From Escherichia coli (GTDB lineage Bacteria > Pseudomonadota > Gammaproteobacteria > Enterobacterales > Enterobacteriaceae), in assembly GCF_003018255.1 (NCBI RefSeq), contig NZ_CP027440.1: a stretch of DNA of 64,000 nucleotides. One strand, written 5' to 3'. Position numbers: made by a program. Of the stretch, positions 30,001 through 36,000 are shown piece after piece (position 1 is the stretch's first letter; every line of letters begins with the position of its first letter).

Positions 30001-33000
30001 AAACGCAATGTCATACAGCTTGTTCGTGTATGAGGAGTTCAGCTCTTTCATAATGGGGTACAGGTGTTTGCTGATGCCCTGGGCTTTTTCCATCCAGAGC
30101 TGCATGTAGCAAAGGAGGATGATTTCCTCGGCTGTGAATTGTGGCTGAATATGCGACTGCTGTTCGGTTTGTGTTGTTTTTCCCTGGCTGAAATAGCAGT
30201 CTTCCAGTTTTTCGAACACTTCCCATGCCTGATCAGTTTCGAGCATTTTTGCGTGACGGGCTGCTCCGCGTTCTGTCCAGAGGATGAGGGAGCGAACGTT
30301 ACGGGCGATTTTCACAGAAGGTCTTAAAGACATGCTGTGCTTAAATTCGCGCAACTCCTCATTCTCAAGTAAAAAGTAGTGCTTACCGATAACAAATCGT
30401 CCAGAATTCCGATTGAAATTTTTTCGGATGTAATCTGGTTCTGTGCCATATAAGCTGGCAAGAAGCTCTGTAGTCACCACAGGTATATTACTAAATGAAA
30501 TTATGGAGAGGGACTCCACGGAGATGGTTTTCATGCTTTGTGTCCTACTTGATATTTTGATTTACCCCTTTTGAGAGGGTGACCGGGCGCTCAAAACCGC
30601 AAGTAGTCGGCGGGCATATTCCCATTGCTGGTATTGTATTAGCCGCACGCCCGGTCATAAACCAAGAAGACTGGACACAAAAAAACCGCATGTCTGTCGG
30701 GCGCGGTAACCGCTACTTGCTAAGGTGTTTTGAGCACCTGACGCAGAGTATCCGACAGAATGTGTGGTGTGTCAACATTTCCTTGTGTAGATGTTGACAC
30801 CCTATTAGGTAAAACATTAACGTTGTTTTAATTTGTTAATAATCATCAATTTAATATTAATGTTTGGAGTATAAAAGCATGAGAAAATCCCCTTTGGCAT
30901 GGTATACGGATGTTCTTTTTAATAACTACTTCAATTATTCAGGGCGAGCCAGTCGAAGAGAGTTCTGGTGGTATTATCTGTTTAATTTAATATTCTTGGG
31001 AGTTCTTTTTTTTATCGGATATACATTAGATAATACTGGCATTAGTTATGGGTTTTATATACCTTGCGTTTACGTATTAGCTACGATTATTCCATCCATT
31101 ACATTGAAAGTCCGCAGACTCCATGATATTGGGTTAAGTGCCTGGTACTTGTTTATCTGGTGCATCCCGTATATTGGTGGCTTTATATTGTTCGTTATGT
31201 ACTGTATCCCGTCAGAAAAAGGGGATAATAAATACGGTGCATATAGTATTTAATCCCCGCCAGATAGTCGCATCAAAAAGTACTGGTTATCTTATCTATT
31301 AGATCAAATGTCTTCTCATCAATGTACCAGTACTTTTTATCATCATTTGGGTATTCAACGAAAACCGTCCATAAAACCTCTTCCTTTTTAATGAAAGATA
31401 AAAGAAAAGTCTCTATATCCTTTGAATTGTCTTTGGGAATAACTGTAATAAATGAAGTCCATTTTTCCAACTTTTTACTTTTTATCTGTTTGGCCTCCTT
31501 AGGTAGAAAAATTTTAGCATTTGATTCACGTTCCAGTCGGTCTAATAATTGTTTGGCATATATATCAACAGGAACACTTATGTCACTTGCTTTATGACGT
31601 AATTCAATAGTTGGTGTATACTCGTTCGAAAAATAGAAAACACCATCACTGGGTGATGTTATCAGAGTCTTTTCTAAATATGTGTATTTGTATGTTATTG
31701 GATTAAACCAATAACAGTACCATTCTGGCTTTAATTGCCCGCTATAAGATGTGTTATTATTGTGAACCTTACACACAGGATAAATGTTTTCTATATCAGT
31801 CCACTTACTTTTATCCTCTTTTTTTTGTGTGTCTATGACGTTTGAGGAGTGTTTTTGGTTGAACACTTGAATATTTAAAAAAACTAAAAGTATGTTTCCG
31901 ATAATAGATGCAATAAGCATTTTCTTCAGTTTTGAGTTATCCATATGCATCCCCTTCATTGTGGACAATTACTCTTTGTCATAATTATAACTAAGTCATT
32001 ATATTTCGTGTTTATTATGTTATAATGATATTTGAATGTATAATTATACTCCTGCATCATTTTACACTCGCCAGAATTTAATTTTTTTTGTATTTCTAGG
32101 CTCATTAAGTTTTTAATCTCTTCACCATCAAAAAATGGCGACATATCTTCATTAATCCCATAAATATTATAATAATGATTAAGTGTATTTCCTTCTACGG
32201 TTGCAGCAATCCATGTAGTATAATCATCTACTTTAATAGGGAATTTTTTCTTGGATAGTTCATTTTTTAAGCATGAGGCAATTTTATCTGCATCTTCTTT
32301 GTTTGATAAAATATCATCAATTTTATTATCACCGAACTCAGTTGCAATTATCTTTACAAAGATCAGCAGAATAATAAACATTAATGCTGCTCCTGTTTTT
32401 TTTATTGCTCCTAATATTTTGTTTCCTGTCATCTTGCAAATCTAACATAAAATTTAATGAGTCTTATTAATAAATTTAATTTCTTATGAGTTGTCAACCT
32501 TCCATCAAGCAAACCGTGATCTAACAGCATGACTGTCTGCTTGATATGTGTTGTCGTCAACACAGTACAGTCCTTGAATACATATAACAAATTTGTTATG
32601 TTGATACCTATGAACTACACTATCGAATACTACAGTGAAGAGGTCCGGCTGGAAGTCGATCAGCTTCCATTGAGTATGCGTGTCCGATACAAACATCTCA
32701 TTGAACGTATGAAGGTATACGGCAGCAATCTCGGAGAACCTCATACCAGCGCCTTTGGTGATGGGCTTTTCGAACTCAGAATTAAAGGCAACGATGGGAT
32801 TGCACGTGTTTTTTACTGCACTCTGACAGGGAAACGCATCATTATGCTGCATAGTTTCATTAAGAAAACGCAGAAAACACCGCCAGCCGAACGCAAAAAA
32901 GCTGAAGCCAGAATGAAGGAGGTTAAGCATGACTGGTAAACGCATTACACCTACCATGACACACGACGAAATGGCAGCCAAATGGATGGAGGATCCGGCT

Positions 33001-36000
33001 TTCAAAGCAGAATACGACGCCATCGCCGACGAATTCGCACTACTTGATGAAATGCTGGCAGCACGAAAAGAAGCAGGCTTAACCCAGGCTGAAGTTGCTG
33101 AACGTATGGGAACAAAAGCGACTGCGATCACCAGAATGGAAAGCAATCTTGCATCAGGTATAAGCGGCCCATCATTTGCCACACTGAAAAAATTCGCCCG
33201 TGCTACAGGGAAAAAACTCCAGATCCGCTTCGTTTAACTCTCCACTACCGCGCCGTCATTCTGGCGGCGCTTTACCCCAGAGAAATATCAATCACCGGAT
33301 TGCCACATCCCACTCCGGCTCCTGCCATCTCAAATCCGGTGAATCATTTCTCACCGGAATAACCATTACGTCCTTTTCCCTCCGCTCCCTTTCTATCGCC
33401 ATCACAGCCAATGCTGCAACCATGATGTATTTTTGTTCGTCGGTTCCTGTTTCATAACGACGCATGAGGGTAAACTCGGGGCGATCAGTAACCTCAATGA
33501 TTTCGTTAATTTCTTTAATTTCGAGAGGAATATCCATGAGTTTAGTCTCCTTTGACATTACATGCCCACACTGTTTAAAAGAGCGAGCTGTTATTGAGGC
33601 ATTTGCCGAAAAACAAATTGAAAAAACACCTCTTTTTAACGTCGCTTTTGTATGCAGAAGTTGTCATCGAGGAGGTGTTGCTATTGTTGAAATCCCATCA
33701 GACCACTATCACGGCCCCATGGCGGAAAGCCAGAAAAAAGACCTCGATATTCTGATTTCAGGAAATAGCCAGTACCGTTTCCGCAAGATCTATCCTGCGG
33801 TCAAAAAAATTACCGCACCAGAATATACGCCCCCGGTTGCAGACCGTACTTTTGTTGAGGCAAAAGAGGATTTACAGAGGAGGCGGTACGACACAGTGGT
33901 AATTCTTTGTCGCAGAGTCCTCGATATCTCCACGAAAAAACTGCTCGGCGATGAAGCAGGAAAAGAATCGCTGTCGCAACGTATTCAGATGATTTACAAA
34001 AAAGGGCTGATCACTGAACAGATGAAGGAATGGGCTCATATTGTACGAATTGATGCCAATAAAGCAGTTCATACAGATGAAGTTTTCACACCAATTGAGG
34101 CAAGCCAGATCCTGAGTTTTACCGAAATGTTTTTAGTCTACGCCTTCACTCTGCCTGCAATGGTGGCAGCCAGACGTGAACAAAAAAGATCAGATTCAGC
34201 CTCTATATGAATCACTTTTCTGAACACGTAAGCCCCCGTCATTCACGACGGGGAGAACATCAATCCCTCTGCACTCCCCCGCCAGAATGCCAGCACACGC
34301 TGCATCGTTTCGCTGTTACGGCACTCGCGACAAATTATGTTGTAGCGTCTGTCGTAGCGCCGGATTTCCCCATCAGGTAATGCCCGGATAAGACCAGGGT
34401 CAATAACAACCGGTTTCTTTGCCTTTGCTCTCGAGAGTTTTTTGCGGGCATTTTGCCAGTCCTTACGCGCCTGATCAGACGGGAATAAACCATAACCTGA
34501 GTCGAATATAGCGCCACTGACAACCAGTTCTCTGGACAAACGTCTGACAGCTGTCTTGCTGACTCCGGTTTCAGTAGCCAGTTGCCTGAACGTTCCCCGA
34601 CCATTCAGGCGCACGAGCTCCACAATACGTGCCTTCAGTTCTTCCCGCTGTTCGGGTGTAAATACTTTTGCCATAAGCTCTCCAGTTATCACTTTTCCGA
34701 TGCAATACTGCTGGATGAATCGGTAATCTGCATGACAAGTTCCCGGTGTTTATTCAGCTCACGTAGTGCAGCACAGACACGCTCCCACTTCTGGACCTGT
34801 TTTTTGGCGCGACGAAGTTCACGACTGGCGGCCCGTAGAGGTGGAAGGGTCACTGCACCAGCATATTTTTCGGTGAACGACGGAACATCCCGGATAAACT
34901 CATCTGTACAGGCCTTTGCCGTGCCCTCTGACATCAACGGAAAACGATTCAGTTCGTCGCCTGACGCGCTGTTTTCTGCTTCGTGTGTGATATTCTCATC
35001 CTGCGATGATGACGCGCTCAAATCGCCGTTTTCGACGTCAGGCACTTTATAACGGAATTTTCCCTTGATAGACACGCGCACCAGGCGCCCCGTTGCTGTT
35101 ACTACCGCCAAAGTGGAAGCAACCTTACGAGTGGTAACTCCGAACTTACCCGCTATTTCTTCACAGGTTTTAGCCCCCTCCTGAGCGATAAACTCAATCA
35201 TCATGTCAGCGCTAACTTTTGGAGCGACCTCTTCGGTTACCACATCCGGCGCTTCAGATTGTAGTGCCTGCCCTTCGGTTACCCCGGATTCACCTTCGAC
35301 AGCCAGAAACCAGGTGTGACCCGTTTTATCAACAACACCATTTTTTTTGAGTTCCCACAGTTCGTTGAGAACTTCTTCACGGCTGATATCAAGCCGCGCC
35401 GCCAGTTCAACAGAATTGGCTTTACCCATCGCTTTCAGTGCATGCAATACGGTTTCCATCGAAAATTTACCTCGTCAAAAATTCTCACATACCCTGACGC
35501 CCAACGTTTGACCGCCAGCTCTCCCAGTTAAAATTCACCCAACGACCACCGTTCATGGTCATACGGTCCATCACCCGCTCGCCGAGGAGTGTGCTCATCG
35601 CTGCGTGATTCAGGTTCGTCAGCATCCCGACACTGCGCAGTGATGCCGTTCTGCGGTCGACGATCTGGTTCAGTATGACCTGCTCGTTGCGCGTATCCCG
35701 CTACATGCCAATTTCATCCAGGACCAGAAGGTCAACTCCACAAAGCTCCTGTAAAAATTTCTCACCAGACTTGCCGTTGTCGTAGCCGTCATGCAACACA
35801 CTCATGACATCGGACACGGTGACGATAATCACGCTTCTCCCCTTCGCCATCAGCCGATTACCAATCGCTGCTGCAAGGTGATTTTTCCCGGTGCCAGGTT
35901 TACCGCTGAACACGAAATTCGTGCAGCCGGTATGCAGCTCTGCCGCGATGGATTTTGCCTGACTCAGAGCATGGCGCTGACCGTCGTTCTGCACCCGGTA

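Follow-up and report, generated by a model that had tools for sequence, protein, structure and literature searches.

What occupies the interval between the ant/roi gene and the Ren-like/LygF gene of an Stx1 phage, and does it serve the lytic development of the phage or the defense of its lysogen? We studied this interval in a 64 kb stretch of Escherichia coli DNA (the window, always meaning the full stretch), in which ant/roi ends at 30534 and the Ren-like/LygF gene starts at 34243. From 30500 to 34300 the window is 99.8% identical to the deposited sequences of Shigella phage 75/02 Stx and POCJ13; the sequence is therefore already public, and by this likeness the window is a 75/02 Stx/POCJ13-type Stx1 phage. 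A preliminary description had treated the interval as one AT-rich island with likely defense or exclusion cargo. Sequence comparisons resolve it instead into a variable cargo slot with at least three independently mobile cassettes and one backbone open reading frame (ORF), and we consider it fairly probable that these moron cassettes protect the lysogen, and with it the prophage, against other phages. This view is well supported for a gene related to the RNase RAZR and conventional for a toxin-antitoxin pair; for a DUF805-centered envelope module it is suggested by genomic context and protein anatomy. The locus as such is of a known kind, an ordinary variable prophage moron/defense slot, and what is added here is the RAZR-type assignment of a 'DNA binding protein', a definition of the module boundaries, and a rare, conserved DUF805-centered module that encodes a protein with a predicted pilotin fold.

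All ORFs named in the preliminary description are present at the positions given for them (Table 1), and in public records they are annotated as hypothetical, as 'DNA binding protein', or as toxin/regulator. The RefSeq gene run reads cI/cro, cII, O, DnaC-like, DUF1627, Ren-like/LygF, the interval, Ant, NinB, RusA, NinH, Q, and stx1AB, with ninB, rusA, ninH, and Q all to the left of ant. The pR early-right operon lies on the minus strand, and of the seven interval genes four (DUF805, higB, higA, and the DUF4145 gene) run in the opposite direction, in agreement with the mixed orientation reported earlier. The other three (P158, P223, and an ORF of 81 amino acids [aa]) are co-oriented with the operon, between the replication genes and ninB. 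PHROG and NCBIfam assignments revealed no homology between any interval gene and the nin families (ninB-ninH, rusA, Q), which upholds the statement that none is a canonical nin gene.

The mosaic structure of the slot became apparent from BLAST comparisons, which gave sharp breakpoints, and from counts in 75 matching phage records and 5426 complete E. coli genomes. PhiR5_2 has both flanks and 32543-34796 in common with the window but lacks 30315-32543, the AT-rich part. Another E. coli prophage (L003-L007), integrated by wrbA/yccJ, shares exactly 30666-33239, from DUF805 through HigA, and carries this block in its pL arm near int. A separate prophage context (L008/L009) has DUF805 and P158, bordered by a cI-Eco57I/BsuBI restriction-modification block on one side and by ant on the other, with the P223 gene precisely absent (breakpoints 31259/31954). 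In E. coli JNEC-KY176, the whole set including the DUF4145 gene lies in the pL arm near int. Phage phiSTEC1589-Stx1c shares the backbone (93% identity) but carries other cargo in the slot, namely an antisense winged helix-turn-helix (HTH)-like pair of 95 aa and 119 aa plus a 166-aa ORF; each of these proteins matches only its own PHROG family, for which no function is known. This phage lacks the DUF4145 gene and retains only the 81-aa ORF (phrog_8371, without a Pfam match) of the interval, and for this reason we assign that ORF to the phage backbone and not to the cargo. Because the breakpoints relative to PhiR5_2, L003, and L008 differ, the 'island' consists of separate modules. Three independently mobile cassettes would thus lie between a replication/LygF block and an Xcc1-ant-ninB block. 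The full interval occurs in 4 of the 75 phage records and in 7 of the 5426 genomes, which confirms the expectation that it varies among related Stx phages; the AT-rich module is likewise found in 7 genomes, and the DUF4145 gene in 36. Around the interval, a search for flanking repeats or att-like sites returned short repeats at chance level only.

Base composition separates the same modules. From 30750 to 32540, the envelope cassette made up of DUF805, P223, and P158 (module A) has a GC content of 31.6%, compared with a window mean of 49.3%; this is the third lowest value among 1245 segments of the same size, and every 500-bp segment below 36% GC in the 64 kb falls inside it. The following ~1.7 kb (32541-34242), at 45% GC, stands at the 17th percentile and is therefore not different from the flanks. 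Of the ~3.4 kb described as AT-rich, only the left 1.9 kb (30750-32700) is so, and a single AT-rich island can be ruled out.

Such slots are familiar from other temperate phages. A variable defense hotspot at the cos-portal site of P2 has been described (PMC9122126), as have prophages as reservoirs with variable hotspots (PMC9519451). The slot studied here resembles these in holding interchangeable cargo between conserved genes, with known defense domains next to many genes without known function. Unlike the P2 hotspot, it lies in the lambdoid early-right operon between LygF/DUF977 and ant-ninB, a position that is not catalogued as a hotspot in either study.

DUF4145 is a branch of HEPN, and the slot gene with this domain appears to encode a distant relative of RAZR with the same architecture, fold, and catalytic residues. 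RAZR, the ring-activated zinc-finger RNase of E. coli UMB1727, was formerly called PD-T7-4 and is a proven abortive-infection RNase that assembles around phage ring proteins (Gp77, portals) and cleaves RNA (PMC13017515; PDB 9y9c). Its residues R146 and H154 are needed for defense, mutation abolishing protection, and its variable, RPB9-like zinc-finger domain sets specificity and binds phage proteins, not DNA (PMC13017515). The window protein shares with RAZR a length of about 220 aa, a single-gene unit, an N-terminal Cys4 zinc ribbon (CPHC...C..C; C10, C13, C40, and C43), a linker, a C-terminal DUF4145/HEPN domain (Pfam match 1e-8), and carriage by prophages or mobile elements. In an AF2 model, the N-terminal domain has beta-strands at residues 4-6, 20-27, 33-40, and 46-52, and the C-terminal domain is predicted to belong to the HEPN fold. 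The four cysteines, together with R171, D173, N175, and H179, are invariant in 31 homologues of 35-70% identity. Identity to RAZR over the HEPN core is ~28%, and since RIDANKAVH of the window protein aligns on RIVGNQAVH of 9y9c chain OA (ending residue 159), R171 and H179 of its R-x7-H motif are in register with R146 and H154. As in RAZR, variability is greater in the N-terminal half than in the HEPN half, with mean identities to the window protein of 38% over residues 1-95 and 59% over residues 96-210.

Direct similarity between the two proteins is marginal, and we therefore place the window protein in a separate, mainly enterobacterial subfamily. A PADLOC check had been proposed earlier, and it called no system with confidence in the interval; the best match was that of the window protein to the PD-T7-4 model (E=1.5e-3). 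Collinear matches to this model, with E values from 2.8e-7 to 1e-2, were obtained for 7 of 10 relatives. The family profile matched the RAZR structure 9y9c weakly (E=0.079; hhalign probability 67%), and phmmer returned nothing. Homologues occur in Burkholderia phage phi644-2, antisense within the early region, and in the P2-like phage Cartapus, where their site between cos and the portal gene is the documented P2 defense hotspot (PMC9122126). The window gene differs from RAZR in being embedded antisense in a lambdoid early operon, so that early-operon transcription passes antisense through it. Its start codon and that of the 81-aa ORF on the minus strand overlap by 2 nucleotides (nt) in CATG at 33535-33538, so that the promoter of the RAZR-like gene has to be located within the coding part of the 81-aa ORF. 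If mechanism, trigger, and phenotype follow the analogy with RAZR, the protein would sit as an inactive oligomer, its variable zinc-ribbon domain would attach to ring-shaped proteins, for example portals, of the infecting phage, and its composite R-x7-H HEPN site would then cleave RNA and abort the infection.

The neighboring HigB(Gp49)/HigA pair is, judged by its sequence, a conventional type II toxin-antitoxin unit. HigB, for which the true start is 32610, matches Pfam PF05973 (2e-25) over residues 16-103 as well as phrog_2523 and the toxin family phrog_3445, and it is a 'RelE/ParE family toxin' in RefSeq. The toxin-first order, an 11-nt overlap of higA with higB, the Gp49 toxin, the XRE-type HTH antitoxin, and a palindrome in the promoter region are all shared with known HigBA systems, and nothing about the pair is unusual. 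A candidate HigA operator is present just upstream of higB, and a GC-rich hairpin (33250-33270) followed by TTT is found 3' of higA. The unit is self-contained and probably autoregulated. It may stabilize the cargo, serve as an abortive-infection back-up, or both. The defense cargo foreseen in the preliminary description thus stands for the RAZR/PD-T7-4-like HEPN gene and for HigBA, whereas for the membrane module context and anatomy do no more than suggest it.

That AT-rich three-gene module is rare and is the sole unexplored part of the interval. Its DUF805 gene, with a Pfam match that spans model positions 1-111 of 111, converges on a minus-strand P158-P223 operon. P158 and P223 each have, by hydropathy, one N-terminal hydrophobic segment after Lys/Arg, and no lipobox; among five P158 sequences there is no Cys in or right after this segment. 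Invariant cysteines are found in both proteins (C58 and C77 in P223; C123, in helix 120-129, and C156, at the C terminus, in the five P158 sequences), which fits periplasmic, disulfide-bonded ectodomains. Relative to the L003 allele, DNA identity is 95-100% across DUF805 and P158 and falls to 48-72% across 31300-31890, the P223 ectodomain; the N-terminal anchor and C-terminal amphipathic tail of P223 are conserved and its ectodomain is hypervariable. P223 has no match in Pfam, NCBIfam, PADLOC, or PDB and only three among 1.84 billion representative proteins. P158 has no Pfam match even at E<=10, none in NCBIfam or PADLOC, and none to PDB sequences with its profile; it was found in none of 100,044 species-representative genomes and in only three viral contigs. 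DUF805 matched no PADLOC family, either. An apparent leucine-rich-repeat similarity of P223 (4u09/4u08, E=2e-4) was gone with the family profile and is therefore taken as compositional. P158 and P223 were rejected as paralogues (hhalign probability 0.5%), as was the idea that the membrane proteins might be spanins, holins, or lipoproteins, for which there was no PHROG support and no lipobox. A TTGACA hexamer upstream of P158, possibly part of a promoter belonging to the module itself, is conserved in the aligned upstream regions of L003, L008, and the window.

A search of the 1.84 billion representative proteins uncovered a second clade of the module in Salmonella enterica, located in the nin region of other lambdoid prophages and also of low GC content (~33%). 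The order there is a divergent toxin-antitoxin pair, P149-152, P232, DUF805 on the opposite strand, and then an antirepressor-type gene. The E. coli and Salmonella versions are 28%/27%/46% identical with gene order kept; because order and key residues persist at 27-46% identity, long-term purifying selection is indicated. The DUF805 motifs GRASRRE and RRLHD are invariant, and all three module ORFs are intact in every copy. Neither the complete E. coli genomes nor the phage collection contained the Salmonella-type module. Overall, the module occupies three genomic contexts or phage positions, one of them beside a restriction-modification system. DUF805 is present in every version and is its constant member, since viral contig L024 has DUF805 and a P223-like gene without P158, and L008/L009 lack P223. 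In every complete copy a toxin-antitoxin pair is divergent from the P158 gene and at the same relative position, drawn from three unrelated families (Gp49/HigB-HTH, ParE, and PIN-Phd); this recurrence could reflect functional coupling or merely a shared insertion site. The gene 3' of DUF805 is likewise always of antirepressor type, with differing families (ORF6N Ant, AntA, Rha).

The periplasmic domain of P158 is modelled with the AspS/PA3611 pilotin fold. The predicted topology is alpha1-beta1-beta2-beta3-alpha2-alpha3-beta4-beta5 followed by a C-terminal segment, with a five-stranded sheet flanked by helices. This predicted topology and the predicted periplasmic site are shared with AspS (GspS-beta/YghG) pilotins and with PA3611 of P. 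aeruginosa, and the conserved Cys pair of P158 may tie the C-terminal segment to the helical layer, as a disulfide does in those proteins. In contrast to AspS pilotins, P158 lacks the lipobox Cys for Lol-dependent outer-membrane targeting, and for this reason it would be either anchored in the inner membrane or free in the periplasm. It also differs from AspS/PA3611 in having no sequence-level match to them and in being encoded with DUF805 and P223 in prophages. All neighbors of P158 are phage genes, and there are no secretion genes in any context examined.

What would such a module do? T4 Imm/Sp, P22 SieA, HK97 gp15, and lactococcal Sie2009 are prophage superinfection-exclusion membrane proteins. 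The proteins of the module resemble them in being small, prophage-encoded, anchored at the N terminus, periplasm-facing, variable, and located at moron positions; they differ in lacking detectable homology and in forming a three-component module around a polytopic DUF805 protein. Superinfection exclusion at the periplasm or inner membrane is the single role that appears most likely, although at less than even odds, and we put it forward tentatively. The long-conserved gene order, the autonomous signals and accessory distribution with defense-gene neighbors (restriction-modification, RAZR-like, and toxin-antitoxin), and the confinement of divergence to the P223 ectodomain together speak for a selected, lysogen-expressed envelope function in conflict with a variable opponent. 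DUF805, P158, and P223 would form a complex at the inner membrane and in the periplasm that keeps the genomes of superinfecting phages from entering, with the P223 ectodomain as specificity determinant and the P158 fold as a helix clamp, in whose groove the conserved amphipathic tail of P223 might conceivably dock. It is possible, if somewhat doubtful, that the cassette amounts to an undescribed DUF805-based prophage envelope-immunity system in which membrane-tethered P158 and a diversifying P223 would recognize and block, in the periplasm, incoming phages or another secretin-like/ring-shaped envelope structure.

The main specific rival for the envelope module takes the pilotin fold at face value. 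Inner-membrane-tethered P158 would bind the C-terminal S-domain of GspD-beta, HofQ, or filamentous-phage pIV, and the module would be a lysogenic-conversion cassette acting on host secretin-dependent machines and not on phages; a mislocalized, stabilized, or blocked secretin would alter type II secretion, competence/pili, or filamentous-phage release. We regard this as unlikely. P158 is only ~12% identical to pilotin-fold proteins and has no Pfam pilotin match, its contexts offer no nearby secretion genes, and L024 dispenses with it while DUF805 is constant. The hypervariability of P223 is more readily understood in an arms race than with a housekeeping target, and the fold may be a generic helix-binding scaffold.

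A second alternative concerns the cargo as a whole, which might support lytic development (membrane remodeling, lysis timing, or replication support) as nin genes do. The co-orientation of P158, P223, and the 81-aa ORF with the pR operon, at a position between the replication genes and ninB, would suit such a role, as would retention of the 81-aa ORF in a related phage with other cargo. Yet the majority of the interval genes run antisense to the operon, PhiR5_2 and phiSTEC1589-Stx1c are viable relatives without module A and/or the DUF4145 gene, and the same block also occurs in the pL arm near int and beside the cI-restriction-modification block. The rarity of the module and the absence of holin or spanin likeness in PHROGs point the same way, and we think lytic support quite improbable.

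Could module A simply be a silenced, neutral foreign passenger without a present function that travels along with the ant gene and the toxin-antitoxin pair? A GC content of 31.6% against 49% is typical of H-NS-bound xenogeneic DNA, and the module is extremely rare, had no homologues among the 100,044 species-representative genomes, and has no functional annotation. However, intact ORFs in every copy, preservation of gene order, Cys pairs, GRASRRE, and RRLHD between clades, and divergence in one ectodomain instead of an even spread make this very unlikely. Least credible is the proposal that the zinc-ribbon/DUF4145 protein regulates by binding nucleic acids instead of acting as an RNase effector: phrog_1305 carries the label 'DNA binding protein', which RefSeq copies, zinc ribbons are often nucleic-acid binders, and the family profile weakly matches RPB9 and ribosomal zinc ribbons, but the HEPN fold with an invariant R-x7-H aligned with the catalytic residues of RAZR, the protein-binding role of the RPB9-like domain in RAZR itself, and the presence of homologues in defense hotspots all argue otherwise.

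Several observations weigh against a protective role of the cargo. For the RAZR-like protein, these are the 'DNA binding protein' label of its PHROG family, the weakness of its sequence-level resemblance to RAZR as expressed by the two E values above, and a Foldseek search of PDB that gave no significant match and did not retrieve 9y9c. Beyond DUF805, module A has no PADLOC, NCBIfam, or Pfam match, nor any likeness to known exclusion proteins, and the P158 model rests on only five sequences (predicted local distance difference test [pLDDT] 73.7). The low GC content of module A could reflect H-NS silencing. A consensus promoter scan produced fewer matches than in shuffled sequences and is therefore uninformative; it did not rise above chance and lends no support to expression in the lysogen. 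Literature searches on DUF805, POCJ13, and the interval ORFs yielded nothing functional and no experiment on any interval gene.

If an exclusion role is correct, it would give a first function to DUF805, a widespread family without a known role, and could assign the AspS/PA3611 fold a task outside secretion. With just three genes, the module is a compact candidate in which the P223 ectodomain varies naturally among alleles and of which two-gene versions exist in nature. Stx phages are medically important, and their non-toxin cargo shapes which phages co-infect or displace them. A RAZR-type sensor in an Stx1 phage would also offer a ready test of ring-activated HEPN immunity from a lambdoid prophage, and of its targets.

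Table 1. Features of the slot and of comparison loci. Coordinates refer to the window unless a locus is named (L002, PhiR5_2; L018, phage P13374; L026, phiSTEC1589-Stx1c).
Feature	Coordinates	Strand	Remarks
Antirepressor-type genes by DUF805	29866-30534; L003 7470-8105; L012 7442-8020		ant-type (ORF6N) gene of the window forms the left flank
sRNA-Xcc1-family RNA	30573-30656	-	Rfam RF02221, 79.6 bits (gathering score 53), full length
Further Xcc1 copies	L003 7341-7429; L008 7141-7224; L018 5074-5157; L019 3906-3994
DUF805 inner-membrane protein, 124 aa	30879-31253	+	Pfam PF05656 2e-30; phrog_12855 'membrane protein'; three hydrophobic segments
P223	31273-31944	-	Predicted N-terminal membrane anchor and ~195-aa periplasmic domain
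P158	31956-32432	-	Predicted N-terminal membrane anchor (or uncleaved signal) and periplasmic domain; first gene of P158-P223 operon
Perfect -35 hexamer TTGACA	32492-32497	-	Upstream of P158; candidate own promoter of module
Perfect 16-nt palindrome ATAACAAATTTGTTAT	32584-32599	.	Just upstream of higB, read from sequence; candidate HigA operator
HigB-type toxin, 109 aa	32610-32939	+	Gp49 family, RelE/ParE superfamily; antisense to early operon
HigA-type HTH (XRE) antitoxin, 102 aa	32929-33237	+	phrog_1373; NCBIfam HTH/antitoxin families, low scores
Toxin-antitoxin pairs beside module	32610-33237; L012 4836-5358; L013 4656-5329; L017 4147-4883
81-aa acidic ORF	33292-33537	-	phrog_8371 2.9e-55; early-operon orientation
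RAZR-like protein, 224 aa	33536-34210	+	Cys4 zinc ribbon, linker, DUF4145/HEPN domain; converges on Ren-like/LygF
Ren-like/LygF (DUF977) gene	34243-34692	-	PHROG 'Ren-like exclusion protein' 1.9e-40; right flank
Gene pair, 95 aa + 119 aa (winged-HTH-like)	L026 4176-4824	+	Toxin-antitoxin-like layout
166-aa ORF	L026 5435-5935	-

The genes and RNAs that border the slot deserve brief mention. By its PHROG match, the Ren-like/LygF backbone gene on the right is itself a possible exclusion-related gene. On the left, the Xcc1 element lies 38 nt upstream of the ant/ORF6N start and marks the boundary of the cargo, and homology with L003 begins beside it at 30666. Xcc1 also stands upstream of Ant/AntA in L003, L008, L018, and L019, as in every context examined, and therefore belongs to the ant module and not to the cargo. 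An APSE-phage paper likewise places Xcc1 upstream of an ORF6N gene, and in phage P13374 the Xcc1 stretch is annotated as a coding sequence (antB2). The element looks like a recurrent leader or small RNA (sRNA) of antirepressor genes and not like a Xanthomonas-specific sRNA.

Other RNA elements accompany ant in relatives of the window phage. IsrK and the C4 antisense RNA are found upstream of ant in PhiR5_2 (L002 5542-5740) and in P13374 (L018 5993-6180), and PhiR5_2 additionally has the a1b1 target; the arrangement is a P1/P7-type immI-like control. The window phage is without the isrK/C4 RNAs at the site occupied by module A. The sRNA STnc100 (RF02076, 164.7 bits) lies directly 3' of stx1B at 25165-25367 on the minus strand; PhiR5_2 has two tandem copies of it, and Salmonella prophages have one copy 3' of Q.

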